Below, one piece after another: positions 8,702-61,665 of a stretch of DNA of 64,000 nt. The DNA lies in IMG/VR virus record IMGVR_UViG_3300042542_002916, positions 12,206 to 76,205 of that record; one strand, given 5' to 3'. The notes under the pieces are model-generated. The model made no database searches. It saw only the letters and a program-made list of their open reading frames with translations, and had not been told where the DNA came from. Position 1 is the stretch's first letter. Every line of letters starts with the position of its first letter. The translations under genes and the position numbers were made by a program. The DNA comes from a virus.

Positions 8702-10501
8702 GTGCCAATAACAGTGGACCTCGACAAAGAGAAATCCCACATATTGATTACCGCAGAATGGCGGTACAAGGAACTCTGTAAATCCTTGCCCGGCTCCTCT
8801 TGGAGTCAAGATGAGCAGGTATGGAGAGTCCCTCTTAGTTGGTCCAGTTGCCTTGCTTTACGCTCCACTTTTCGTGATGATTTGACTATTGGCCCAGAGC
8901 TTACAGACTGGGCCAGTAACGAATTAAACACCCGTATAAGCCCCTCAATGGCCCTCAGAGAGCTTGAAACAGCCGAGGGGGACGAAGACCTATTCCCACA
9001 TCAAAGAGCTGGCGTAGCCTTCCTAGCGACTGCTAAACGAGCCCTTTTGGCAGATGAGCCGGGTCTTGGTAAGACCGCTCAGGCTATCCGTGCCCTCAAG
9101 AAATTACAGGAGAATGGTGAGGAAGTCTTTCCTGCACTTATTGTCTGTCCTAATACCCTCAAGAAGAACTGGGCTCGTGAATTCAAGACTTGGTGGCCTG
9201 AAGTTACTACTCAGGTAATTAAGGGGACTTCTGCCCAGCGTAAGAAACAATTTGAATCAAACGCAGATGTCTACATCATCAACTGGGAGTCCTTGCGTAC
9301 ACATTCACGACTTGCCCCATACGGATCAGTTGCCTTAACACGCTGCTCCACATGCGGTGGTCACGATGAAGCAATAAGTGAAAACCGTTGTGAGGTTCAC
9401 CTTCGTGAACTAAACAAGATTGATTTTAAAGCTGTTGTTGCAGACGAAATCCACCGCTCTAAGGAACCTAAGTCAAAGCAGACTCGTGCTCTTTGGTCAG
9501 CAACTGGAGACGCTCAGATTCGTTTTGCTCTTACTGGAACACCAATTGCAAATAACGTTGTTGACTTGTGGGCGATTCTTCACTGGCTATCCCCTAAAGA
9601 CTGGCCTTCAAAGACAAAGTGGATTGACCGAATGATTGACACGATGCTTAATGCATTTGGTGGGATGCTTGTAATTGGGGTAAAGCCTCACATGCAGGAT
9701 GAGTTTTATAAAGCAATTAATCCGCATATGCGCCGTATGCTTAAGTCCGTTGTGCTTCCATGGCTTCCAGAAATTATTAACGAACGCCGTGATGTTGAGA
9801 TGTCGACTAAGCAAAAGAAAGCTTACGAGCAGATGCGTGACACCATGATTGCAGAGCTTGAATCTGGTGATGCACTTACTGCCCCAAGTATCTTGACTCA
9901 AACAACACGACTTGTTCAGTTTGCTAGTTCTTACGCAACTATGGAAGTAAACGAAACAACAGGGGAGATGAAAGCAAGATTGTCAGACCCCTCCTGTAAA
10001 GTCGATGCTCTGATGGATGATATTTCTCATGGTGACTTTGGTGATGATTCAGTAGCGGTATGTGCTGTATCTCGTCAGTTGATTGAACTTCTTAGCGCCG
10101 CTATGACCAAGGCAAAGATTGACCACGGTCTTATTACTGGTGCTCAAGATGAAGATGAACGACAGAAAGCTATTGATGATTTCCAGTCTGGGAAGATTAA
10201 ATGGATTCTATTTACAGCACAGGCTGGCGGTGTGGGTGTGACCTTGACTGCTGCCCGTAGGCTGATTATGCTTCAGAGGCCGTGGTCATTAGTTGACCAT
10301 AAGCAAGCTTTGGATCGCGTTCATAGAATTGGTTCCGAAATTCACGATTCAGTGATTATCACTGATTACGTTACTGAAGGAACTATTGAAGAACGTGTAT
10401 TGCAAGTGCTAGAAACAAAAGCAGATAACTTTGAGCAAATTGTCCGTGACAAAGACCAACTACTCAGGGTTCTAAAAGACGATAAGGCAGGAGTCCTATG
10501 A
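8702..10501 (+). CDS. SNF2-family helicase
   Basis: LLADEPGLGKT, VVADEIH, ALTGTPIAN, AGGVGVTLT, QALDRVHRIG. Confidence 0.95.
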   Translation: MPITVDLDKEKSHILITAEWRYKELCKSLPGSSWSQDEQVWRVPLSWSSCLALRSTFRDDLTIGPELTDWASNELNTRISPSMALRELETAEGDEDLFPHQRAGVAFLATAKRALLADEPGLGKTAQAIRALKKLQENGEEVFPALIVCPNTLKKNWAREFKTWWPEVTTQVIKGTSAQRKKQFESNADVYIINWESLRTHSRLAPYGSVALTRCSTCGGHDEAISENRCEVHLRELNKIDFKAVVADEIHRSKEPKSKQTRALWSATGDAQIRFALTGTPIANNVVDLWAILHWLSPKDWPSKTKWIDRMIDTMLNAFGGMLVIGVKPHMQDEFYKAINPHMRRMLKSVVLPWLPEIINERRDVEMSTKQKKAYEQMRDTMIAELESGDALTAPSILTQTTRLVQFASSYATMEVNETTGEMKARLSDPSCKVDALMDDISHGDFGDDSVAVCAVSRQLIELLSAAMTKAKIDHGLITGAQDEDERQKAIDDFQSGKIKWILFTAQAGGVGVTLTAARRLIMLQRPWSLVDHKQALDRVHRIGSEIHDSVIITDYVTEGTIEERVLQVLETKADNFEQIVRDKDQLLRVLKDDKAGVL

Positions 10502-11427
10502 GTGAAGTAGTTAGACTTTCAAACTCTGAAATTCAAACATTTAAAGATTGTCGCCGTCGTTGGTGGTTTAGTTACTACCGACGCTTGCAACCAAAGTACA
10601 AAGACTCTACTGGTGCTCTTGCATTAGGAACTCGTATCCACGCAGCACTTGACGATTATTATGCAAATGGAACTAACCTTCTGACTGCACACAATAATCT
10701 TGTCAACACCGAGAAAGCTGTTTTGCTTGAGAAGTTTCTTGATGTATCTGAACTTGAAAAAGAAGCAGAGCTTGGTCACATCATGCTTGAGGGTTATCTT
10801 CAGTGGGTTGAAGAGAACGGAATTGACGCAGAGCTTGAGATGATTTCAACTGAAGAAATTATTACTGCACCGCTCTTCAATGGTGAGGTTGAACTTACTG
10901 GAAAGCTTGACATGCGTGTTCGTCGCAAAGGTGACGGTGTTCGTATGTTCCGCGATTTCAAAACTGTAGGTGGGTCTCTTGGAGACTTTGCAAATCTTGC
11001 ACCTATGAATGAACAGATTCTTACCTACATGCTTCTTGAAGCAACAAAGGTGGATGAGACGGAGCGCTCAGACGGAGGTATCTTCACAATGTTGAAGAAG
11101 GTTCGTCGTTCTGCAGCAGCACGACCACCTTTCTATGACCAGATAGAGGTCAGACACAATATCTTCACCTTGCGTTCCTTCTGGGATCGCATTCATGGGA
11201 CGATTACGGACTTGATGAGAGTTCGTACTGCCCTTGATAAGGGGGAGAGCCCTGCATTCCATGCGTATCCGAGCCCGTCTCGTGATTGCAAATGGAAATG
11301 CAAGTTTTACTCTGTATGCACTCTCGTCGATGATGGAAGTGCATCAGAGCAAGCAATAAGTGAAATGTATGAAGTCGCAGACCCATACGCATATTACGGA
11401 AACAACGAAACAAAAGGAAACGAGTGA
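10498..11427 (+). CDS. PD-(D/E)XK exonuclease (Cas4/RecB-like)
   Basis: LSNSEIQTFKDCRRRW, GTRIHAAL, GKLD...DFKT, Q..Y, and C-terminal CKWKCKFYSVC Fe-S cysteines. Confidence 0.88.
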   Translation: MSEVVRLSNSEIQTFKDCRRRWWFSYYRRLQPKYKDSTGALALGTRIHAALDDYYANGTNLLTAHNNLVNTEKAVLLEKFLDVSELEKEAELGHIMLEGYLQWVEENGIDAELEMISTEEIITAPLFNGEVELTGKLDMRVRRKGDGVRMFRDFKTVGGSLGDFANLAPMNEQILTYMLLEATKVDETERSDGGIFTMLKKVRRSAAARPPFYDQIEVRHNIFTLRSFWDRIHGTITDLMRVRTALDKGESPAFHAYPSPSRDCKWKCKFYSVCTLVDDGSASEQAISEMYEVADPYAYYGNNETKGNE

Positions 11428-15932: not shown

Positions 15933-16448
15933 GTGTGGAAACCAGCTACTACCCTCAATTGGCAGATAAATGCCCTATGCTCCGACCCTAAAAATAAATA
16001 TGCAAGGGATTGGTTCTTCTCAAAGGAGCCAAGAGAGCGTTATGACGCAAAGAACCTCTGCTACGGATGTCCTGTAAGAAGCCAATGTCTTCAATGGGCT
16101 TTAGAGCACCGTCAGATCTGGGGTATATGGGGCGGTAAAGACGAGGTAGAAATTCGTCGTGCACTCTCTGTCTCTTACAACGGTGAAGAAGCAAAGCGTA
16201 GAAGGTATCCGCATTGCCCTTACTGCAGTGCTCGTCCATCAAAACTAGAGACAAGTTCGCAAGAAGTCCCTGGTGGAGGACGATGGACAACAGCAAAGAT
16301 TGTTACATGCACCGTCTGTGAGTTCTCATGGAGAAGCCGCACCAGCGTAAATGCTGTTGAAGCGTATAAGTCAGAACGAGCAGATAAACAACTAAAGAAA
16401 CAAAAAGAAAAAGAAAAGAAGTCTAAGAAGCAGAAGTCTGCTTCATAA
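15933..16448 (+). CDS. whiB: WhiB-family transcription factor with C-terminal Zn ribbon and basic tail
   Basis: WQINALC...AKNLCYGCPVRSQC...GIWGG, then CPYC...CTVC and a Lys-rich tail. Confidence 0.9.
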   Translation: MWKPATTLNWQINALCSDPKNKYARDWFFSKEPRERYDAKNLCYGCPVRSQCLQWALEHRQIWGIWGGKDEVEIRRALSVSYNGEEAKRRRYPHCPYCSARPSKLETSSQEVPGGGRWTTAKIVTCTVCEFSWRSRTSVNAVEAYKSERADKQLKKQKEKEKKSKKQKSAS

Positions 16449-52848: not shown

Positions 52849-53526
52849 TTACTTAGGTGATATTAGATTTTCTTTAGAAAGTGCTACAAAAATGTTTCTA
52901 ACAGTTGACGCGTACCATTTTTCGCCGCTGTGCGCTGTTGGTATTGCGTCTTTATTTAAATTTTCGGCAATGTTACGGTAAGAAATTCCAGCATTGTGTT
53001 CAATAAATATTCTTTGACGAACTGCTTCATCAACTGGAGACTTAGGTCCTAAATCAATTCCCCAAACCTTACCTTTGTCACGTCTATCTTGATGAACATC
53101 TTTTTGACGCATGGAAATCATTCCGCGTTCCATCTCAGCCATTGCTGACATAATTGTTACAACGAAGCGTCCTTGATATGTTGCAGTATCAAGACCTAAG
53201 TCAAGCATTGCAAGACGCCAATTGTTTTTGTGTGAACGGTCAACAATACTTAAGAAGTCACGAGTAGAACGAGCAAGGCGATCAAGACGAGTTACATATA
53301 AAGCCTTAGCTTTTCCTGAGTCCAAATCATCTAATGCTTGACGGAGAACTGGTCTTCCTTGAATGCTCTTACCAGAGCGACCTTCTTCACGAAGAATGAC
53401 AGCTTCATAGCCAGCAGCTTCTGCTGCAGCTTTCATCTGCTTCTCTTGAGCACCAAGACTCATTCCATCCTCTGCTTGCATCTGAGTAGATACTCGGGCA
53501 TAGCAGTAGGCGATTCCTTCACTCAC
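52849..53526 (-). CDS. Serine recombinase (resolvase catalytic domain + short recombinase-type DNA-binding domain)
   Basis: YARVST, SGKS..GRP.L, RLDRLARS, AEMER, then IAENLN...W.ASTVRNI. Confidence 0.92.
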   Translation of the reverse strand: MSEGIAYCYARVSTQMQAEDGMSLGAQEKQMKAAAEAAGYEAVILREEGRSGKSIQGRPVLRQALDDLDSGKAKALYVTRLDRLARSTRDFLSIVDRSHKNNWRLAMLDLGLDTATYQGRFVVTIMSAMAEMERGMISMRQKDVHQDRRDKGKVWGIDLGPKSPVDEAVRQRIFIEHNAGISYRNIAENLNKDAIPTAHSGEKWYASTVRNIFVALSKENLISPK

Positions 53527-54251
53527 GGGGCAACACGACCATTCTCAACAAAAGCTTTATGGGTTAAAGGCATAAGTTCTTTAAATATCTCTTCATACTT
53601 CTCGGCAACCATTTCAATCTCCCGCTGGGGGTAAGAAGGAAAGTGAGAGCCTTCAACAGAGCGTCTAAGACTTAAGAAGTTCATAAGCGCTCTGGCATTC
53701 ATAGTTACATAGGCAGAAGAGTAGATAGTGACTGGGAGAACTCCACGAGCGACTTCTCTTGCTATCCCGTGACGAAGAAGTTCTTCATAAGATGCATAAG
53801 CCTCGTTGCAGTTTCTACGGAAGGTCTGAAGAGTTACTGCATATTGTTCGTCAGTTCCTTCAGTAAAAATGTATGCTCCTGCTTTACCTGTTTGGATAAG
53901 TTTTCTATCTTTAGGTGGAGCATAGAACTCTGGTTCTAACTGTTTATATCGACCAGACTCTTCGTTATAGGAAGCCATGCGATGACGCATATGCTCACGC
54001 CAAACAAAGATAGGTGCTTTGACATAAAAGGTAAAAACAGAATGCTCAAACGGAGAACCATGTCGTTCCCGAGCTAGGAAGTTAATAAGTCCAAACAACT
54101 TCTCGTTGTTCTCCATAGAGAACCCGTCCAAGCTGTTTTTTGACCTTTCACCTTGAGTAGAGACTCTGGCTGCAAAAGCAACATCATGGTCAGAAGCGCT
54201 GTGCTTTACAAGTTCAACGACAACATCAGACCTAAAGGTCGCTTTATACAT
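53523..54251 (-). CDS. thyX: Flavin-dependent thymidylate synthase
   Basis: HGSPFEH, RHRMASYNEESGRY, AREVARGVLP, NARALMNFLSLR, QREI. Confidence 0.97.
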   Translation of the reverse strand: MYKATFRSDVVVELVKHSASDHDVAFAARVSTQGERSKNSLDGFSMENNEKLFGLINFLARERHGSPFEHSVFTFYVKAPIFVWREHMRHRMASYNEESGRYKQLEPEFYAPPKDRKLIQTGKAGAYIFTEGTDEQYAVTLQTFRRNCNEAYASYEELLRHGIAREVARGVLPVTIYSSAYVTMNARALMNFLSLRRSVEGSHFPSYPQREIEMVAEKYEEIFKELMPLTHKAFVENGRVAP

Positions 54252-54724: not shown

Positions 54725-55231
54725 CTAGAGAACCTTTGGTCGCATTACAACCAAGGCACTGGGGAAGGGGGCGGCATTTTTGGATTTACCAAACTTGAGC
54801 CGTCCTCGGATATATCGAACCTCGTGGTGGATAGCGTAGTCGTGAAACCATGCTGTGTCCGTCCTTGAGGGGACTAGGCAGACGACAGTTGCTCCTTTTT
54901 GGGATTCTTCGTCTGCTTTCTTCATCCACTCCTTGATGGTCTTTCCATAAGGTGGGTTTAACCAAATTATGCCTGTACCAGCATCTTGGTGCCAATCTCG
55001 GGTGAACGCATCTCTTCGGTCTCTATGAGGATGGTCTGGTCCATACCAGTTACGACATAGGGCCGATGACTGCAGTGCAGCAGCATCAAGAGTGAAGTCA
55101 AACTCTTTAGAGACTTTGTTGAAGAAGTCTGCAGGAGTTGACCAAGTGTCATCCATAGATGACATTGCTGTTGAGCTGCTGTAGAAGCCCGTACTAGCTG
55201 CGTATGGGGTCATCGTTACGTCTGAAGTCAT
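54725..55231 (-). CDS. Phage DNA N6-adenine methyltransferase (Dam family)
   Basis: DTWSTP, FTLDAAA, IWLNPPYG, LVPSRTDTAWFH, RGRLKFG, APFPS. Start reassigned to ATG 55231 (TACACT 6 nt upstream). Confidence 0.9.
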   Translation of the reverse strand: MTSDVTMTPYAASTGFYSSSTAMSSMDDTWSTPADFFNKVSKEFDFTLDAAALQSSALCRNWYGPDHPHRDRRDAFTRDWHQDAGTGIIWLNPPYGKTIKEWMKKADEESQKGATVVCLVPSRTDTAWFHDYAIHHEVRYIRGRLKFGKSKNAAPFPSALVVMRPKVL

Positions 55232-55239
55232 GCTAGAAG

Positions 55240-55337
55240 TGTACACCCTTAGACTTAAGTTTGTACAACATTATGACCCTATATAGAGATTCCTAATGTT
55301 CAGATATTGTACGTTACGGGCGATTTTCGTACAATAT
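55240..55337. promoter_or_regulatory. Cluster of TGTAC-containing inverted repeats; candidate recombinase res/operator site overlapping the operon promoter
   Basis: TGTACACCCTTA-GACT-TAAGTTTGTACA (55240-55267) and ATATTGTACG-N14-CGTACAATAT (55304-55337). Confidence 0.45.
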
Positions 55338-55346
55338 AGGATAAAC

Positions 55347-55538
55347 CTATGCCTTAGCCGTTCTCTTAGATGTAGTTCTTAGTTTGTAGACATGCCAAGC
55401 ATTGCAAGTGTCGCAACCATAAACAGAGTAAAGCCCTAGCCTGCCGTTTTTATCTTCAGAGTAGGTCTTCATCTGAGCAAAGCGCTCAGCCATGTCTCTG
55501 CTTGAGTAGCGCGTCTTTCTATTACAAATCTTGTTCAC
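55347..55538 (-). CDS. Small Zn-finger-like protein
   Basis: C..K.RY...VYGCDTCNAWH; TATTTT 6 nt upstream of GTG. Confidence 0.65.
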   Translation of the reverse strand: MNKICNRKTRYSSRDMAERFAQMKTYSEDKNGRLGLYSVYGCDTCNAWHVYKLRTTSKRTAKA

Positions 55539-55608
55539 AGGAAGAAAATACTCTTAGAGGGTAAAAAATGCAAGATTAGGGGTTTTAGATTTGCATAAGC
55601 TGGAGCTT

Positions 55609-55788
55609 ATGTTAGAAAAAACACCCCTTGGCGAAAGCGACTACAACCGAGCATTCAGCGAATATCTGAAGTGGCTTGAGAAACATGTTTCACAACTTGA
55701 AGAAGATATTGAGAAGTTGAAGTTCCGCATCGTGGAACTGGAGGGTCAGCTTCGCTGGACCGAGATGGAGCTAAGTAGACATTTCTAA
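55609..55788 (+). CDS. Small coiled-coil protein
   Basis: Heptad pattern; ATG 55609 preceded by TAAGCT at 7 nt. Confidence 0.5.
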   Translation: MLEKTPLGESDYNRAFSEYLKWLEKHVSQLEEDIEKLKFRIVELEGQLRWTEMELSRHF

Positions 55789-55811
55789 GATATAGCCACT
55801 ATCCTGAAAAT

Positions 55812-55937
55812 ATGACTAGTAGAGACACACACGACATAAAAGAGTACGAAAAAGAAAAAGAGCTGGAGTCAAAAAAGACTAAGACTCCAGAAGAAATACA
55901 AGAACTTGAAGACGCATGGTGGCAAGCAATTAAATAG
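55812..55937 (+). CDS. Small protein (41 aa; not in ORF track)
   Basis: MTSRDTHDIKEYEKEKELESKKTKTPEEIQELEDAWWQAIK; TATCCT 6 nt upstream. Confidence 0.6.
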   Translation: MTSRDTHDIKEYEKEKELESKKTKTPEEIQELEDAWWQAIK

Positions 55938-55940
55938 CTG

Positions 55941-55964
55941 ATTTTCCGGGCGCCCACTCCGTTA
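55941..55964 (+). repeat. Dispersed 24-bp repeat, copy 1
   Basis: ATTTTCCGGGCGCCCACTCCGTTA. Confidence 0.85.
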
Positions 55965-56022
55965 TTAAAATCGGCGGAGACTAAAGGAAAAAGGGGGAAA
56001 GGGGTATTTAGGCTTTTATTTC

Positions 56023-56289
56023 TTATCCAAATGTTTTATCCCACGAAGGAGTATCTGGTATCCCCTGTACCTGTCCAGTTTCAACGGAGTGCCAGTGTGG
56101 TGCAAACATTGCATGGTTTTGGTAGTGAATGTTGTGCCATTGAAAATGAGAATAAACCGCTTGATCAGACTGACTTATAGAAATCAAAGCAGAACATATA
56201 GCGCATGAAACTGCTGTCTCCGCAAATAAACCAAGAACAGGTGAACACGAAGCTTTAAACGCATCAAAATCTTTATTTAGATCACTCAT
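56023..56289 (-). CDS. Hypothetical protein, C2H2-like
   Basis: CAIC...HFQWH; GGAG RBS. Confidence 0.55.
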   Translation of the reverse strand: MSDLNKDFDAFKASCSPVLGLFAETAVSCAICSALISISQSDQAVYSHFQWHNIHYQNHAMFAPHWHSVETGQVQGIPDTPSWDKTFG

Positions 56290-56329
56290 TAGTCATCTCC
56301 AATCTAAAGGTCTTAGTGAGTTCATACTA

Positions 56330-56734
56330 TCATTTGTTCTCAGAACGCTTCTTTCGAAGAGCTTCAAAGTCTTTAACTTTTGTGTCTCCCATGTAGCCCC
56401 AAGCGTAGCCACTAGCAATCAAAGCCTCATTGACGGACTTCTCTGCGCCATCAAGAAAGAGCCACCCAAGGATACGACCGTACTTCTCTGAGGAGTCTGG
56501 CTTCTCGGTTTTGATGACAATGGTCTGAGCACTGGCAATAAGTTCGCCAAGCTTCTTTTTAGACTCAAGTCCAAGAGCTTTTTCCATCTTGTCAGTTGTT
56601 CGGGACTCAGGGGTATCAATACCAGCCAAACGAACTCGGGAGGTAAAAGAGATGTCAAAGCCTAAATCAATATCAACATCAATGGTGTCACCGTCTACGA
56701 CCTTGAGGACTTTCTTTACTCGGTACTCGTACAT
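56330..56734 (-). CDS. Thermonuclease (SNase family)
   Basis: VVDGDTI, RVRLAGIDTPE, KYGRILG, VNEALIASGYA. Confidence 0.92.
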   Translation of the reverse strand: MYEYRVKKVLKVVDGDTIDVDIDLGFDISFTSRVRLAGIDTPESRTTDKMEKALGLESKKKLGELIASAQTIVIKTEKPDSSEKYGRILGWLFLDGAEKSVNEALIASGYAWGYMGDTKVKDFEALRKKRSENK

Positions 56735-57012
56735 TACTTAGTCTCTTCTTCCTCTTTAGTGTTGCCAGCGGCAGAAGTGCCATTGAGCATAAATCCTGAA
56801 ATAACGCCTACAAGGAAAGAAACAGTCGTAGAAAGAAGACCAAAGAAGGCTTTGTCGTTCTCGGATTGGACTTCGCCTAAAGGTTGGGTCACGAAAGTGA
56901 CAGCGTAAATAATTGACATTGTTGCACCAAAGACTGTCAGCGCAAGGAGAATACCCACAGTAAAGCGAAGTCGAGCATTGAGTTCATCTGTTGTATAGCG
57001 CTTCTTACTCAT
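56734..57012 (-). CDS. Two-TM membrane protein
   Basis: Likely start MSKKRY overlapping the lipoprotein stop; two TM segments around QP....ENDKAFF. Confidence 0.65.
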   Translation of the reverse strand: MSKKRYTTDELNARLRFTVGILLALTVFGATMSIIYAVTFVTQPLGEVQSENDKAFFGLLSTTVSFLVGVISGFMLNGTSAAGNTKEEEETK

Positions 57013-57256
57013 TCGTGGTTTCCTCGGTGGTAGTTGGGGCATTTTCATATTCGGAATCTTCATCGAAAAGTGGGGTTCCTCTCATAACGTCTTTAGTACA
57101 AACTCCATAAGCTTCGCAGTTTGGAGGTACGCACTCTGGTGCTTCCCAGTTGGCAGGGTCTTGGCATGGATATCTGTAGATATCTTCAAAGGTGTATTTG
57201 CCGCACCCTGTAAGAGTTAGGCATAAGGCGATAACGCCAATTGCTTTTGAAATCAT
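57005..57256 (-). CDS. Cys-rich lipoprotein
   Basis: GGAG RBS; signal with lipobox LTGC; RYPCQDPANW...ECVPPNCEAYGVC. Confidence 0.7.
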   Translation of the reverse strand: MISKAIGVIALCLTLTGCGKYTFEDIYRYPCQDPANWEAPECVPPNCEAYGVCTKDVMRGTPLFDEDSEYENAPTTTEETTNE

Positions 57257-57338
57257 GGCTCTCCAACTACCCGTGTCCAATGGGTGTATCAATTATCGCA
57301 GGTGTGTGGCAAGGCGATTCTGAGGCTAATCTGTTGAT

Positions 57339-57509
57339 ATGGACTTGCTAATGGCGGTTATAACACTCTTGATTAGTGGGACATGGTTGATAGTGACTCT
57401 TCTGTATGTCTTTATAGCCAGCTCTTCCTTTGTTTGGAAACTTGCTGTGTTTGGACCACCAATGCTGATTATGTGGTGGGCACTAAAAACCTACGGAAGA
57501 GCCGACTAG
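57339..57509 (+). CDS. Small two-TM membrane protein (56 aa; not in ORF track)
   Basis: MDLLMAVITLLISGTWLIVTLLYVFIASSSFVWKLAVFGPPMLIMWWALKTYGRAD; TAATCT 6 nt upstream. Confidence 0.6.
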   Translation: MDLLMAVITLLISGTWLIVTLLYVFIASSSFVWKLAVFGPPMLIMWWALKTYGRAD

Positions 57510-57515
57510 ACCTTG

Positions 57516-57539
57516 ATTTTCCGGGCGCCCATTCCGCTA
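57516..57539 (+). repeat. Dispersed 24-bp repeat, copy 2
   Basis: ATTTTCCGGGCGCCCATTCCGCTA (22/24 identical to copy 1). Confidence 0.85.
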
Positions 57540-57550
57540 CTATTGGAGCC

Positions 57551-58084
57551 ATGACAACCATCATCGGAGTTCAGGGGAAAGAAGGGTGTTTGTTGGCTGC
57601 TGACAGCCGTACAACAGGTGAGACAGGCCGCCCTTACTGTCACGAGTTTGTTGAGAAGATTACAGAGCGTGGTCACTACATGATTGCTTGCTCTGGAGAT
57701 GCAGATGCCTGCGACATCATTCAACATCAATGGAATCCGCCAAAGCCACCAAAGCTTGATAAAAGTCATTACAAGTTTATGGTCACTGAGGTTTCTACAA
57801 GCCTCAAGCAATGCTTGAAGGATAAAGGATACGAAAAAGACAAGTCAGATAAAGATTCTGGGTTTCTTGTATTGATTGCTTTGAATGGCACTCTTTATGA
57901 AGTAGATGAGACTTGCACTGTTTCTATGCGCGATGATGGCGTCTATGGGATTGGCAGTGGATCAAAGTATGCAATCGGTGCGCTACAAGCTGGTGCTGAT
58001 TGGAACACGGCTCTTATTATTGCTGAGAAGAATGACATCTATACAGCGCGACCATTTATTTATCGACGCCAAGTAAAAATCTAA
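57551..58084 (+). CDS. Proteasome-beta/HslV-like Ntn-hydrolase (threonine protease)
   Basis: M-TTIIGV...LAADSR...EKI...SG...GIGSGS.YAIGAL...DIYT; true start at ATG 57551. Confidence 0.85.
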   Translation: MTTIIGVQGKEGCLLAADSRTTGETGRPYCHEFVEKITERGHYMIACSGDADACDIIQHQWNPPKPPKLDKSHYKFMVTEVSTSLKQCLKDKGYEKDKSDKDSGFLVLIALNGTLYEVDETCTVSMRDDGVYGIGSGSKYAIGALQAGADWNTALIIAEKNDIYTARPFIYRRQVKI

Positions 58085-58107
58085 ATCTCCGGGCTCTCGT
58101 TCCGTTA
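58084..58107 (+). repeat. Dispersed 24-bp repeat, copy 3
   Basis: AATCTCCGGGCTCTCGTTCCGTTA. Confidence 0.8.
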
Positions 58108-58145
58108 ACAAAGGACGACGAAGCCAAAAGTAGGGGGGGAGGGGG

Positions 58146-58685
58146 TTAGGTGGGTGTGGCTTTCTTCCGTGCTCGGTATTGACGCATGTATTCGGCTTTT
58201 ACCCTTTTAGCCACTCGTGCTCTGGACGCACGATTATGTGTTAAAACACATATTCGACACAAGAAGTAAGAACCATCTCTGCTTGAGTTACGAATGTAAG
58301 CATTCTCTGGAATGCGTGGATGTCCGTTGCGACAGTATTCGGTAGTGCTGGGTCTACCAACAATCTCATCAATTGATTTATTAAGACCGCGTTTTATTGC
58401 ATCTCTATTGTTTTCGTAAGCCGTACCAAGCTCAAGGTGATTTGGGTTTACGCAAATCTTGTTGTCGCAAGTATGCATAACGTAAAAGTCAGAGATTGGT
58501 AAAACACCATCGTTATGATAAACAGCCCAGATGTAACGGTGGGCAGTAACGATGTGCTTTGGTTTGTAAGCAAAAGCTCCGTATCCACTACTTTGAATTG
58601 CAGCTTTCCAGTTCCAGCACTTATTAACTCCTGAGACTTCTACCTTATCCCAGAAGCGCTTAAGACGCCGAAGCTCTTCTTGCAC
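58146..58685 (-). CDS. HNH endonuclease with C-terminal Zn-binding domain
   Basis: CWNW...GYG...AHR...HTCDNKICVNPNHL...N; C.NGH...CRIC. Confidence 0.9.
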   Translation of the reverse strand: MQEELRRLKRFWDKVEVSGVNKCWNWKAAIQSSGYGAFAYKPKHIVTAHRYIWAVYHNDGVLPISDFYVMHTCDNKICVNPNHLELGTAYENNRDAIKRGLNKSIDEIVGRPSTTEYCRNGHPRIPENAYIRNSSRDGSYFLCRICVLTHNRASRARVAKRVKAEYMRQYRARKKATPT

Positions 58686-58710
58686 TTGCGAAAGGTATCA
58701 CTAAAACTAA

Positions 58711-58734
58711 AATCTCCGGGCTCACACTCCGTTA
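58711..58734 (+). repeat. Dispersed 24-bp repeat, copy 4
   Basis: AATCTCCGGGCTCACACTCCGTTA (21/24 identical to copy 3). Confidence 0.8.
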
Positions 58735-58762
58735 TCATTCTCCGAAGCGAAGGGAGGAAATA

Positions 58763-58879
58763 ATGGATCAAGTAAGTGTGATGTTGATGTGTGCGATGGT
58801 TGGCTTTGTGGCTGGTTATGGCTTCGGGCTTGGGATTTTAAAGTTGAATGGTAAGAAACAAGATAAAGTAGACGAGTGA
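58763..58879 (+). CDS. Small single-TM protein (38 aa; not in ORF track)
   Basis: GGAGG RBS; MDQVSVMLMCAMVGFVAGYGFGLGILKLNGKKQDKVDE; GTGA overlap with the next gene. Confidence 0.6.
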   Translation: MDQVSVMLMCAMVGFVAGYGFGLGILKLNGKKQDKVDE

Positions 58880-59598
58880 TATATGAGTGGAAGATGGATG
58901 GAGTAACGAGGAACTTTGGGGACTCGTTATACGAAATACTCCTCCCTTCAGGAACTCGCTACCAATGGGAGATGGACGCTGAGCGTTTTTACTTTCCTGG
59001 TGGAAACTACATCTGCAATGAAGTAATTCTAGAAGTTCTTGCTATGGGTCTTAGACCCGTCTTCTCCCGCTCTGGGTGGAGAGGAACAGAACTAAATAAA
59101 GAGCTTGTAGACCAGTGCGTCTTTCAAAGCGTGAGCGGTCCTCACACAAAAGCAGAACTTGCAAGACATGGCATCGATGTTCATATGGCTGGGCATGTTG
59201 CTTATGACATCCCACTGCAATACATAAAAGCTGAACCAAATGCGCTCGCAATAGTAGTAAGAGGTATTAAAGACCCTTCTGACTACAGCAAACAATCAAT
59301 TTATGAATTAAGCGCTGATGCAATGTTTAGTCCAGTAGTAGATACAGAAACAGATATCTTTGAGTTAATCAAGACAATTTCTGGTGCACGATTTGTGCTT
59401 GCTGGTTCTATGACAGCGGCAGTTGTAGCGCATGCTTTCAACATTCCCTTTGCTCCGTATGACAGTAATGGCTACATTGACTGCCTCCCTAAGTGGTACG
59501 ACTGGTTTGACTCAGTTGGGTTAGGCGAACCTATCTTCTGTACAAATGTCATTGAGGGCCGACTTTGGCACAAAAACTTCGTTATGGGACAAAAATAG
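58876..59598 (+). CDS. Polysaccharide pyruvyl transferase-like protein (ExoV-like, divergent)
   Basis: NFGD.L; SVSGPHT (usually VRGP.T); ISGARFVLAGSM.AAVVAHAFNIP; KWYDW. Confidence 0.6.
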   Translation: MIYEWKMDGVTRNFGDSLYEILLPSGTRYQWEMDAERFYFPGGNYICNEVILEVLAMGLRPVFSRSGWRGTELNKELVDQCVFQSVSGPHTKAELARHGIDVHMAGHVAYDIPLQYIKAEPNALAIVVRGIKDPSDYSKQSIYELSADAMFSPVVDTETDIFELIKTISGARFVLAGSMTAAVVAHAFNIPFAPYDSNGYIDCLPKWYDWFDSVGLGEPIFCTNVIEGRLWHKNFVMGQK

Positions 59599-59629
59599 CC
59601 ACCTTTTCAATGAAGTAATCTATAAAGAT

Positions 59630-60208
59630 ATGGCTTCACAAAAGAAATTGGCTTGGGACTATATCGTTCCAGTCGTACTCCCCAAAGATATTAAAAACGA
59701 GACTCCAGGCAAATTGCCTGCACATCTTCTTACTCCTGCAGCAGGTGGTGGAAAGATGCATTGGATTGCATGTGCAGCATGGAATGCAATGGTTGAGAAA
59801 GCAAAAGCTGAAGGTGTTGTTCTAAAACCAACTTCTGCTGGCGACACATATCGCGATTACGAAATGCAAAAGCGTGGCTTCTTGCAACGCTACCAATTAG
59901 AAGACACTGGCACTGGTGCAACAAAGACCTTTGAAGGTAAGACTTGGTATAAGAAAAAGGGAATGGCAACCTTGGCTACGCCGGGTAAGAGTCAACATAA
60001 TCTTGGCTTGGCTGTTGATGTGCACTCTGCTGGTGAACCAAAGCGTTTGAACTGGCTTGTTGCAAACGTAAAAGAGTTTGGTTTTAGTTGGGAAGTTGTT
60101 CCTGAAGAGCCATGGCACTTGCGCTATGTCTGTGGTGACAAGATTCCAGCGACAGTTGCTGCATATATGCAAGCAAAAGGAATTGTGGCTCCTACACCTA
60201 AAGGCTAG
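59630..60208 (+). CDS. Peptidase M15 (D,D/L,D-peptidase), endolysin-type catalytic domain
   Basis: YR....Q, ATPGKSQHNLGLAVD, EPWHLRY; likely start MASQKK at 59630. Confidence 0.85.
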   Translation: MASQKKLAWDYIVPVVLPKDIKNETPGKLPAHLLTPAAGGGKMHWIACAAWNAMVEKAKAEGVVLKPTSAGDTYRDYEMQKRGFLQRYQLEDTGTGATKTFEGKTWYKKKGMATLATPGKSQHNLGLAVDVHSAGEPKRLNWLVANVKEFGFSWEVVPEEPWHLRYVCGDKIPATVAAYMQAKGIVAPTPKG

Positions 60209-60848
60209 CTCTCGCTTCTAACCATCTATCTAAATCATGTGGATAGTCAAAGTCTTCTGTCCAGTCATCTATCTCTATATAGTGTCCCTTTGACAAATGG
60301 TCTTCAGTTCTACTTCTATAACTTATGCCAAGAAGATGTCTCATCAAAGACCAACCTCCAGCACTGTAGATATCCTGCTGATCTAAAAGAGTGCTGATGC
60401 TTTTACGGAGTGTTTCGTGGATAGAGTCATAAAAAGAAAAAGCGTAAATCTCTGCATAAGGCTTTTTAGTAAAACTAGATGGGCCACTTCGTAATAAAAA
60501 AGTAAAGTCTTCTGTGTCTTGAACAATTGTGGATATTGCTTCATCTGTGTAGTAAGCGTCTCCAAATAAAAGAACTGTTCGTTCGGACCAGAGTTTTTGA
60601 GATGACGAGAACTTGTGCATTTCTAGAGGTGACTTTTTTTCCTCAGGTATAAACAACTCTGAAAACTCGGTCTTGTAAGAGTCATCTGTGCCAACAACAA
60701 AAGTTTTATCTGCGTGTACAGAAATCTGCCTAGTTGTGCGTTGAATTAAAGATTCGCCATCTATCTCTAAAAGATGCTTAGGCACACCTGTGTAGTTGCC
60801 CCAACGTTTGCCTTTTCCTGCTGCTAAGACGATTGCTGTAAAAGTCAA
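60198..60848 (-). CDS. Nucleotidyltransferase (LicC/NTP_transf_3-like)
   Basis: AIVLAAGKGKRW...PKHLL.IDGE.LI.RT; LLFGD; EDFDYPHD. Confidence 0.8.
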   Translation of the reverse strand: MTFTAIVLAAGKGKRWGNYTGVPKHLLEIDGESLIQRTTRQISVHADKTFVVGTDDSYKTEFSELFIPEEKKSPLEMHKFSSSQKLWSERTVLLFGDAYYTDEAISTIVQDTEDFTFLLRSGPSSFTKKPYAEIYAFSFYDSIHETLRKSISTLLDQQDIYSAGGWSLMRHLLGISYRSRTEDHLSKGHYIEIDDWTEDFDYPHDLDRWLEARASL

Positions 60849-60871
60849 TTTTTCCGACTCTCTTTCCGCTA
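60848..60871 (+). repeat. Dispersed repeat, degenerate copy 5
   Basis: ATTTTTCCGACTCTCTTTCCGCTA, followed by CGAAGC and a G-run as in other copies. Confidence 0.55.
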
Positions 60872-60886
60872 TAACGAAACGAAGCG

Positions 60887-61129
60887 CTACTTCCGAGGAA
60901 GGGGGTAGTTTTTGGCGTCGTCTTGAAGAAGTTGTTCGTAGATGGCACCTGGGATCTTGTCGCCTTTGCGTTCATGCGCCTTTAGGTGGTCAATCATTTC
61001 TTGAGTTGACTCTGCTTTAAAGTAGGCTTCAAGAAGGTCGCCAAAAGAACATAGAGAACACTGGACTGGTCCAGCTTCAGTCCGAAATACATACACATCG
61101 TATTCGGGGATTCTTGCGTAAATTGTCAT
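60887..61129 (-). CDS. Small C2H2-like protein
   Basis: CSLC...MIDHLKAH; start MTIYAR with TATGAT 6 nt upstream. Confidence 0.65.
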   Translation of the reverse strand: MTIYARIPEYDVYVFRTEAGPVQCSLCSFGDLLEAYFKAESTQEMIDHLKAHERKGDKIPGAIYEQLLQDDAKNYPLPRK

Positions 61130-61164
61130 AGGAGAATCATACAAGTTTGTCTATACTCTTGTAA

Positions 61165-61356
61165 ATGGGACCAATGCGAACTGAATTTAGAATTTATGAT
61201 GAAGAGTGGGCTAACTCGTTAAGAGCAAAAATCTTGCAATGCATCGTCACTGGGAGAGACCCAATCGTTGTTGTAGGTCCAGAAATACTCTCGGCTTATA
61301 CGGATGAGAAGATAGGTTTTGTCTTTACAAATGAAGACAGACTGTGGAAGGATTGA
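61165..61356 (+). CDS. Hypothetical protein
   Basis: TATACT 7 nt upstream; N-terminus resembles the next gene (FRIYDEEWA / FEIRDPEWA). Confidence 0.55.
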   Translation: MGPMRTEFRIYDEEWANSLRAKILQCIVTGRDPIVVVGPEILSAYTDEKIGFVFTNEDRLWKD

Positions 61357-61359
61357 CCT

Positions 61360-61665
61360 ATGCGCGAATTTATGAAGTTTGAGATTAGAGACCCTGAGTG
61401 GGCAACCAACATTCAAAATGAGTTGGAAGAATATATGGGTGGTCTTTATGACTCTATAGAAGCCGACTTTGATTCGCCTGAAGCAGACCCTTTTACAGAA
61501 AGTGGTATTCCCTTCTGTGGATGCAATGTCTGCGAAGGAAGAGAGATTCTCTCATTCTTATCCCCAAGAATTATTAAGGGCTATCTGAATAAGCAGATTG
61601 GTTTTTATGAAACCGATGAGTCTGAGATTGTTGAATATTTAGAAGCTGAGATTGTAGAAGACTAA
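61360..61665 (+). CDS. Hypothetical acidic protein with FCGCNVC motif
   Basis: 101-aa ORF in operon. Confidence 0.6.
   Translation: MREFMKFEIRDPEWATNIQNELEEYMGGLYDSIEADFDSPEADPFTESGIPFCGCNVCEGREILSFLSPRIIKGYLNKQIGFYETDESEIVEYLEAEIVED

Follow-up and report, generated by a model that had tools for sequence, protein, structure and literature searches.

The window analysed here comprises 64,000 nucleotides (nt) of viral DNA, corresponding to bases 12206-76205 of the 76,205-base IMG/VR record IMGVR_UViG_3300042542_002916, and positions given below are window positions unless another genome or contig is named. Within its accessory-gene region a short GC-rich word is repeated in direct orientation at gene boundaries, and this repeat, its neighbours and its counterparts in related lake phages are the subject of the present analysis. 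The pattern TCCG-N9-TCCGYTA gave exact matches at 55945, 57520, 58088 and 58715, all on the + strand (copies 1-4), and the 23-nt consensus also had four matches (copies 1-4), with 0.00 expected. When TTCCGGGCNCNCNNTCCGNTA was searched at up to 3 mismatches over the whole 76,205-base record, five hits were obtained on the + strand and none on the - strand (0.2 in shuffled sequences), the fifth being copy 5, found at 60851 with 3 mismatches and one base shorter than the others. A first-pass annotation, made from the letters of the window, had described five same-strand copies at gene boundaries, constant in orientation and without a further full copy; pattern and consensus scans, together with the positions of the copies relative to open reading frames (ORFs), bear this description out for the entire record.

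To the left of the repeats lie genes for a small serine recombinase (52849-53526), ThyX (53523-54251) and Dam (54725-55246), all on the - strand. Copy 1 (ATTTTCCGGGCGCCCACTCCGTTA; 55941-55964, +), of a GCGCCC variant, occupies a convergent junction between a 41-aa + ORF, whose stop codon is at 55935-55937, and an 88-aa - ORF with its stop at 56023-56025; neither a leftward start nor a -10 element stands beside it, and it is referred to here as an orphan. It is followed by a purine/G-run tail (AGGAAAAAGGGGGAAAGGGG; 55985-56006, +), which on the - strand reads as a C-rich, G-poor stretch. In lake metatranscriptome run X24, two 151-nt contigs (55885-56035 and 56061-56211), identical to the window and probably one read pair, cover copy 1 and the 88-aa gene, and the other five X24 pieces in the 9-kb stretch compared have 2-8 differences each. 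A gene for an SNase-type nuclease (56330-56734, -) comes next. Copy 2 (57516-57539, +), also of the GCGCCC variant, lies just after a stop codon (57507-57509) and 11 nt ahead of the gene for an HslV/proteasome-like peptidase (57551-58084, +; product beginning MTTIIG); its terminal TA opens a TACTAT (57538-57543), followed by 7 nt and the ATG at 57551, which is the geometry of a rightward leaderless promoter. The peptidase is a stand-alone Ntn-hydrolase (PF00227, phrog_1040) with 64-66% identity in relatives, and no HslU-type ATPase was seen near it. Copy 3 (58084-58107, +), a GCTCTC variant and likewise an orphan, overlaps the stop codon of the HslV-like gene (58082-58084) in a convergent junction with an HNH endonuclease gene (58146-58685, -), and its G run (GGGGGGGAGGGGG; 58133-58145, +) abuts the HNH stop codon (58146-58148). 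Copies 2 and 3 enclose only the HslV-like gene and copies 3 and 4 only the HNH gene, as had been noted.

Copy 4 (58711-58734, +) lies in a divergent junction between the HNH gene, read leftward, and a 38-aa membrane ORF (58763-58879, +). Read leftward, the reverse complement of the word is followed by 16 nt, TACCTT (58697-58692), the spacer tcgcaa and the GTG at 58685 of the HNH gene, placing copy 4 at about -29 to -49, over the -35 position of the -10 element and GTG start (58683-58697, -) that it serves. Read rightward, it runs into TATCAT (58733-58738), a Shine-Dalgarno (SD) sequence GGGAGG and the ATG at 58763; a TANNNT is reached in this direction by copies 2 and 4 only, in agreement with the first reading. 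The membrane ORF is followed by a 240-aa gene (58876-59598, +; family unknown, weak PS_pyruv_trans hit), syntenic behind the motif in relatives G002, G003 and G005, and by a VanY D-Ala-D-Ala carboxypeptidase within the ORF 59546-60208 (+), forming one rightward block (58763-60208) that may be a lysis or cell-wall module. Copy 5 (60848-60871, +) is degenerate and one base shorter; in reverse complement it constitutes the ribosome-binding region, between two cistrons, of an NTP-transferase gene (60198-60848, -) starting with TTG at 60848. The 80-aa gene upstream of the latter has its own TTTACA-N18-TATGAT-N6-ATG promoter (61165-61127), and the gene called as 85 aa (60887-61144) probably starts at the ATG at 61129, with TTTACA-N18-TATGAT ahead of it. 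Two further features previously noticed are equally real: CGAAGC follows copies 3-5, and the purine/G run right of the copies is seen as nearly invariant G columns some 35-45 nt rightward in a 16-copy alignment drawn from several genomes. The former belongs to a secondary box, (C)GAAGC(A)GCG, 8-18 nt right of GCTCCC-type copies (58108-58125, 58735-58750 and 60872-60886 in the window), which recurs as AAGCAGCG in relatives L049, L050 and L052.

In at least 20 contigs of related, uncultured lake phages the word is present 2-7 times, in a single orientation, within an accessory-gene block of 2-10 kb. Scanning IMG/VR with the pattern yielded 43 stretches, among which the high-GC ones look like chance and the low-GC ones (0.40-0.51) show flank similarity extending past the pattern; three further contigs were added via the HslV-like gene. 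The related, mostly complete genomes G001-G005 (110-160 kb) contain 4-7 copies each, and the fragments G006-G009 contain 2-6. At 0-2 mismatches the copies of each genome (G001-G009) lie on one strand and cluster in 2-10 kb, and among the weak hits at 3 mismatches one (G004, 65177) falls on the other strand and five lie well outside the cluster. As in the window, the motif cluster of the relatives adjoins the recombinase-ThyX pair, plus Dam. No copy was found at up to 3 mismatches in DSL-LC01, a lake metagenome-assembled genome (MAG) that is the closest named phage; the repeats ATAGGGACGC of this phage (four copies) were considered as an analogue and ruled out, being intragenic. The word seems specific to phages, as a search of 185,579 prokaryote genomes gave two chance-level hits (a Chitinophaga isolate and an Opitutales MAG), neither of them actinobacterial.

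From 44 aligned copies we derived the extended consensus AAAA-N3-4-NAWTT-TTCCGGGC-K-C-Y-C-NN-TCCGTTA. Its reverse complement reads TAACGGAA-N-GGGAGCCCGGAA-AAT, that is, TAACGGAA-N-GGG(A/C)GCCCGGAA-AAT. A variant with GCGCCC and TGATT is the sole form in G001, G004 and L032, and GCTCCC or GCTCTC is the sole form in G002, G003 and G005-G009; the window carries both, with copies 1-2 of the former kind and copies 3-5 of the latter.

Two fixed geometries, both on the strand opposite to the one on which the repeat was first read, are seen among these copies. Starts and ORFs were counted by ORF-based criteria against random-position controls; a simple gene caller misplaces some starts. In 20/44 copies TTCCGGG is separated by 1-2 nt from a leftward start codon, 4-5 nt past the word, that opens an ORF of 40 aa or more, as compared with 9% of random positions, and these starts comprise 14 ATG, 5 TTG and 1 GTG. 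The GGGAG of such start-adjacent copies stands 9 nt ahead of the start, which is the Shine-Dalgarno distance, and in 9/44 copies the word ends in a TTA that doubles as the TAA stop of a leftward frame open over at least 40 codons (control 0.8%), the word then constituting the entire intercistronic spacer. With one exception, start-adjacent copies carry A-containing variants (GGGAG, GAGAG, GTGAG; GAGAGT in copy 5); the exception, L032_1256, is a GCGCCC copy better read as promoter-type. The flanking A and T tracts are conserved even inside the first codons. Within the window, copy 5 alone (1/5) belongs to this start-slot type.

In the second geometry the word takes the place of a -35 box. A TANNNT occurs 16 nt after the reverse-complement word in 10/49 copies, and at offsets of 14-16 nt in 14/49, over a background of 1.2% per position (p ~1e-9). 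It is followed by N6 and ATG or GTG, the predicted transcription start falling 27-29 nt from the word, so that in promoter-type copies the word covers about -28 to -48, the usual place of the -35 box. TANNNT-N6-ATG/GTG is the canonical actinobacterial leaderless arrangement. The junction orthologous to that of copy 4 in G002, G003 and G005 displays TATGAT-N6-ATG with the predicted transcription start 28 nt from the word, ahead of an unrelated 247-aa gene. The copies do lie on the + strand, where the first-pass annotation read them; the fixed geometry belongs to the opposite strand, at leftward starts and promoters. Leaderless TANNNT-N6/7-ATG/GTG starts were also seen in the block, at 58864-58878, 61127-61165 (-), 57538-57553 and 58683-58697 (-), as well as in L062, L011, L048 and L051, and because genes or operons start in this way, several ORF starts from simple ORF calling are too long.

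Three kinds of known repeats come nearest to the lake word: start-associated sequences, the operator/stoperator system of L5-type phages and promoter-early stem-loops. The start-adjacent geometry recalls the start-associated sequence (SAS) of Cluster K mycobacteriophages, GGGATAGGAGCCC (PMC3203893); Microbacterium phages of Cluster EF carry GGGAAAGGACCCC (PMC7302621). The form GGAACGGGAGCCC of the lake word is identical to the Cluster K SAS at 10/13 bases and has a similar distance from the start; this best form has 3 mismatches, and falls outside the Cluster K SAS as defined by no more than 2 mismatches to GGGATAGGAGCCC (Pope 2011, PMC3203893). Other features of the class are found: a GGAG-core asymmetric word lies 3-7 nt before starts (20/44 in relatives, and copy 5 in the window), in a single orientation and in a non-structural region (at 0-2 mismatches, in the block by the recombinase, ThyX and Dam). 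Both words are asymmetric and one-oriented, share a GGAGCCC core, present GGAG in the ribosome-binding slot a few bases ahead of mostly ATG starts and are confined to the non-structural region; both also occur occasionally away from starts and sometimes enclose the upstream stop. SAS are absent from bacterial genomes, as the lake word nearly is from the prokaryote genomes searched. The lake word differs in its greater length (24-33 nt), which takes in a second CGGAA half and A/T tracts on the flanks, in its few copies (4-7) clustered in less than 10 kb, and in its phages, which are unrelated, low-GC and from lakes. It is new with respect to the Cluster K SAS in its second geometry, over the -35 position of leaderless promoters, and in an SD-less variant (GGGCGCCC), and no ESAS-type 17-bp inverted repeats were seen with it. 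Actinobacteriophages commonly have conserved one-strand words at gene starts, SAS/ESAS, stoperators and similar repeats among them, and we know of no function shown for SAS.

This resemblance, together with the 20 start-adjacent copies, their GGGAG at Shine-Dalgarno distance and their A-containing variants, is what a pure messenger RNA signal would produce, in which the reverse-complement word would be an extended ribosome-binding or translation-enhancer site, a strict SAS, perhaps recognised by the host ribosome or by an RNA-binding protein of the phage, with startless copies as decaying relics. We consider this unlikely. Startless copies are as conserved as start-adjacent ones, the 21-nt core holding 35.5 bits where a start is associated and 33.1 bits elsewhere; the GCGCCC variant, without SD or ATG, is conserved across several genomes; the transcription start predicted for promoter-type copies lies downstream of the word, which is thus not part of that mRNA; and conservation reaches the A/T tracts, even within first codons. 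The local folding attributed to several copies in the first reading has no conserved counterpart: RNAalifold on 16 modules gave -1.2 kcal/mol with neither a compensatory pair nor a consensus structure, and a structured small RNA was rejected on these grounds; an Rfam scan of 55000-61500 gave no match. Because start-associated and other copies are equally conserved, the SD-less variant is kept, promoter-type words lie off the transcript and RNA structure is lacking, the comparison favours a word acting as a docking site in double-stranded DNA rather than as a translation signal, and favours the GGGAG-containing variant additionally supplying a Shine-Dalgarno sequence.

The rightward side of the copies suggests another role. 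Of the 44 copies, 19 have a + ORF of 90 aa or more beginning within 160 nt to their right (control 19%), and 15/16 of the examined + genes or blocks behind copies have their own TANNNT-N6/7-ATG or GTG. The HslV-like gene in G001 and L032 has a full module ahead of it (word, purine stretch, G run and GT-rich tail), with a separate -10 element some 100 nt on, and copy 2, which abuts the HslV-like gene of the window, looks like a tail-less derivative of that module. Where no leftward start adjoins a copy, its right flank is rich in purines and poor in C, and in GCGCCC-type modules (G001, G004, L011, L032, L062) the G run is followed by a (GT)n-like tract, GGGTTGTGTGTGTTTTGTGTG, often with a second partial copy of the left half of the word, TTTCCGGGGAGGG, after it. 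Beyond the G run there are short hydrophobic ORFs (LCV..., VVCV...), which were dismissed as composition artefacts of GT-rich DNA without proper SD spacing. Farther to the right of GCGCCC-type copies, 0.5-1.3 kb score poorly under a codon model despite long ORFs (3794-5099 in L048/G001 in oriented coordinates, 3569-4168 in L051 and 1277-1792 in L032), part of this stretch being 89% identical between G001 and L032; such stretches may be non-coding or hold compositionally odd genes. In L055 (G009), the overlapping + ORFs 10005-10154 and 10061-10726 both encode ...EEKFYPK..., which suggests that the gene following a motif copy there contains a frameshift or was misassembled.

A module in which the word and its purine/G-run/GT-rich tail would form an upstream regulatory region or 5' leader of leaderless operons read rightward, or a promoter plus G-rich R-loop or primer element acting as a replication or recombination hotspot signal, would explain why orientation is independent of gene direction; every GCGCCC-type module examined at a + block has a TANNNT-N6-ATG 90-120 nt on, and the G run is conserved in 16 copies. 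Even so, such a module is quite improbable: the word lies anywhere from 31 to 162 nt from the rightward start, so it is no fixed part of rightward promoters, and the same range to the transcription start argues against a core promoter part. Many copies are so closely flanked by tandem leftward genes that a tail would not fit, copies 1, 3 and 5 have leftward genes next on their right side, and there is no sign of an origin at this locus.

The repeat had initially been interpreted as the boundary of gene cassettes handled by a dedicated acquisition and excision system. The part of this interpretation that stands is that the copies are non-random, conserved and placed at boundaries, and that some gene swaps are bounded by them. 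In G003 and G005 two copies precisely enclose a 262-275-aa methyltransferase-like gene, and the corresponding interval of G002 holds 129 nt of unrelated sequence; homology between G002 and G003/G005 stops at the outer edges of these two copies, and both copies are kept. G001, G004 and L032 have only a module of about 85 nt in common at several junctions. In contigs of the lake metagenome runs X8 and X14, a variant retains only 55938-55964 (27 nt, copy 1) between different flanks: on the left 9 nt stand in place of 162 nt, and on the right the sequence resumes at 56363, skipping 398 nt, with the intervening letters unknown. Contigs of X8 further show 57344-57511 replaced up to the left edge of copy 2. 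No contig of the lake runs joins one motif copy to another, an absence that is uninformative in contigs alone.

That the copies would be dedicated cassette recombination sites, attC-like and served by the serine recombinase or a Sak4-type protein, agrees with these replacements and variants, with direct-oriented copies at gene borders and with the resolvase-type gene 2.4 kb away, syntenic in relatives; we nevertheless regard it as very unlikely, and the dedicated system is the part of the initial interpretation that fell. When relatives were compared, breakpoints were no more frequent at the motif than at other gene junctions: ends of homology blocks over all pairwise comparisons are 1.8-fold enriched near the word and 3.2-fold at other gene junctions. 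The G002/G003 swap, with unrelated filler between two retained copies, is not a repeat-to-repeat excision product, and the constant distances to starts and -10 boxes speak for a role in expression.

Service by the recombinase of the window fares no better, as this protein has a 62%-identical orthologue in the motif-less DSL-LC01, and the asymmetric word contains dyad symmetry of at most 8 bp, the palindrome GGGCGCCC, in some copies. Sites of the res/hix type consist of inverted half-sites of about 12 bp around a central dinucleotide; given the 8-bp limit and a recombinase in a phage lacking the motif, no crossover site of this kind was recognised. Integron attC sites are structure-conserved hairpins acted upon by a tyrosine integrase and bordering promoterless, co-oriented cassettes. 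The lake repeats also lie at cassette borders, and there the likeness that had been drawn to attC ends: neither an attC-like hairpin nor covariation was found in 16 modules, no tyrosine integrase was seen, only the small serine recombinase, and the genes enclosed by copies, which occur on both strands, have leaderless promoters of their own.

The analogy also proposed with the promoter-early stem-loop (PeSL) cassettes of T4-type phages (PMC2839356, PMC4122927) is reasonable insofar as swaps at repeats are a by-product. In both cases repeated regulatory sequences flank accessory genes in a plastic region, and some indels or replacements end there. The lake word differs in having no stem-loop or terminator part and in not being a complete sigma-70 promoter, and breakpoints at it are not enriched over other junctions; a composite of early promoter and stem-loop terminator was not detected, with no conserved hairpin and terminator-like sites at chance. 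Passive recombination of the PeSL kind is plausible as a side effect of regulatory DNA being present in repeated copies.

Taking these results together, we propose, with a probability of roughly 0.55, that the repeat is a lineage-specific, strand-locked docking word for expression control in uncultured freshwater actinophages, acting as double-stranded DNA. The word would dock a transcription factor of the phage (or the host) and would be read in the leftward sense, which is that of most genes in the block. The bound factor would activate or repress leaderless promoters carrying the word at the -35 slot; in the GGGAG variant the word would double as a Shine-Dalgarno sequence; and operon-internal or orphan copies (1-3) might act as an orientation-dependent roadblock or insulator. 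In this last respect the model is the stoperators of L5 and Cluster A phages, reportedly described by Brown et al. in 1997 as 13-bp asymmetric sites of the gp71 repressor. Lake words and stoperators are both asymmetric, lie in short intergenic gaps by starts or stops with orientation tied to transcription, and in some cases overlap a promoter -35 region; the lake copies differ in being clustered rather than genome-wide and in that some oppose the neighbouring gene, and the sequences are unrelated. Near-identical direct repeats of 24-33 nt at gene borders would also offer crossover points for ordinary recombination, and the occasional cassette swaps can be taken as a by-product because near-identical, direct-oriented copies sit at gene borders, as do T4 PeSLs.

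Several observations weigh against an expression-control docking word. Neither leftward slot suits copies 1-3, a rightward leaderless gene begins 30-120 nt beyond many of the copies, and the word may have a rightward or bidirectional role. It would be unusual for a single factor to work at distances from the start as different as these two, and start-adjacent copies could work purely as RNA. Orthologous copies are not independent, about 6 independent promoter-type junctions underlying the peak at offset 16. The RNA match is confined to the two X24 contigs over copy 1, of depth 2 and unknown strand, which may be RNA or carried-over DNA. Neither the WhiB protein nor the serine recombinase is confined to motif-bearing phages: the WhiB protein, at 73-77% identity in four motif-bearing relatives, is present at 52% in DSL-LC01, and the serine recombinase likewise occurs in that motif-less phage.

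As to the factor, searches in five of the motif-bearing genomes found no sigma-70 region 2 and no T7-type RNA polymerase (PF00940), the latter a weak negative, as control genomes also gave nothing. A scan for consensus sigma-70 promoters and terminators reached chance level only, none of 20 small ORFs nearby yielded a DNA-binding candidate in Pfam and PHROG scans, and an ECF/SigH-type GGAAC-N-GTT promoter was rejected on either strand for misfitting spacing. The WhiB protein (171 aa; 15933-16448, +) comprises a WhiB domain at residues 10-76 and a C-terminal extension of about 95 aa; its link to the motif was set aside, since presence of the protein does not discriminate motif-bearing from motif-less phages. 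It is a tentative and rather doubtful idea that a WhiB protein with such an extension, or a sigma-appropriating protein, reads TAACGGAA-N-GGGMGCCCGGAA instead of a -35 box, the same word doubling as a ribosome-binding site and the factor forming a roadblock on orphan and operon-internal copies, where it could work with the upstream C-rich stretch to end leftward transcripts. If this were true, the shared GGAGCCC core would imply that the whole SAS class is read by a conserved actinobacterial partner, and it would offer a first handle on a motif that has gone unexplained since 2011 and whose function was still unknown in 2025 (PMC12699233).

For the lake-phage family itself, the word provides two sharply defined geometries, with an equally conserved SD-less variant as a natural control, and together these speak for docking at the DNA level. 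Apparent cassette boundaries of the kind seen here can be a by-product of repeated regulatory DNA and need not be evidence of a recombination machine. In annotating these abundant freshwater phages, the word and the TANNNT-N6-ATG rule help to locate where small genes start.

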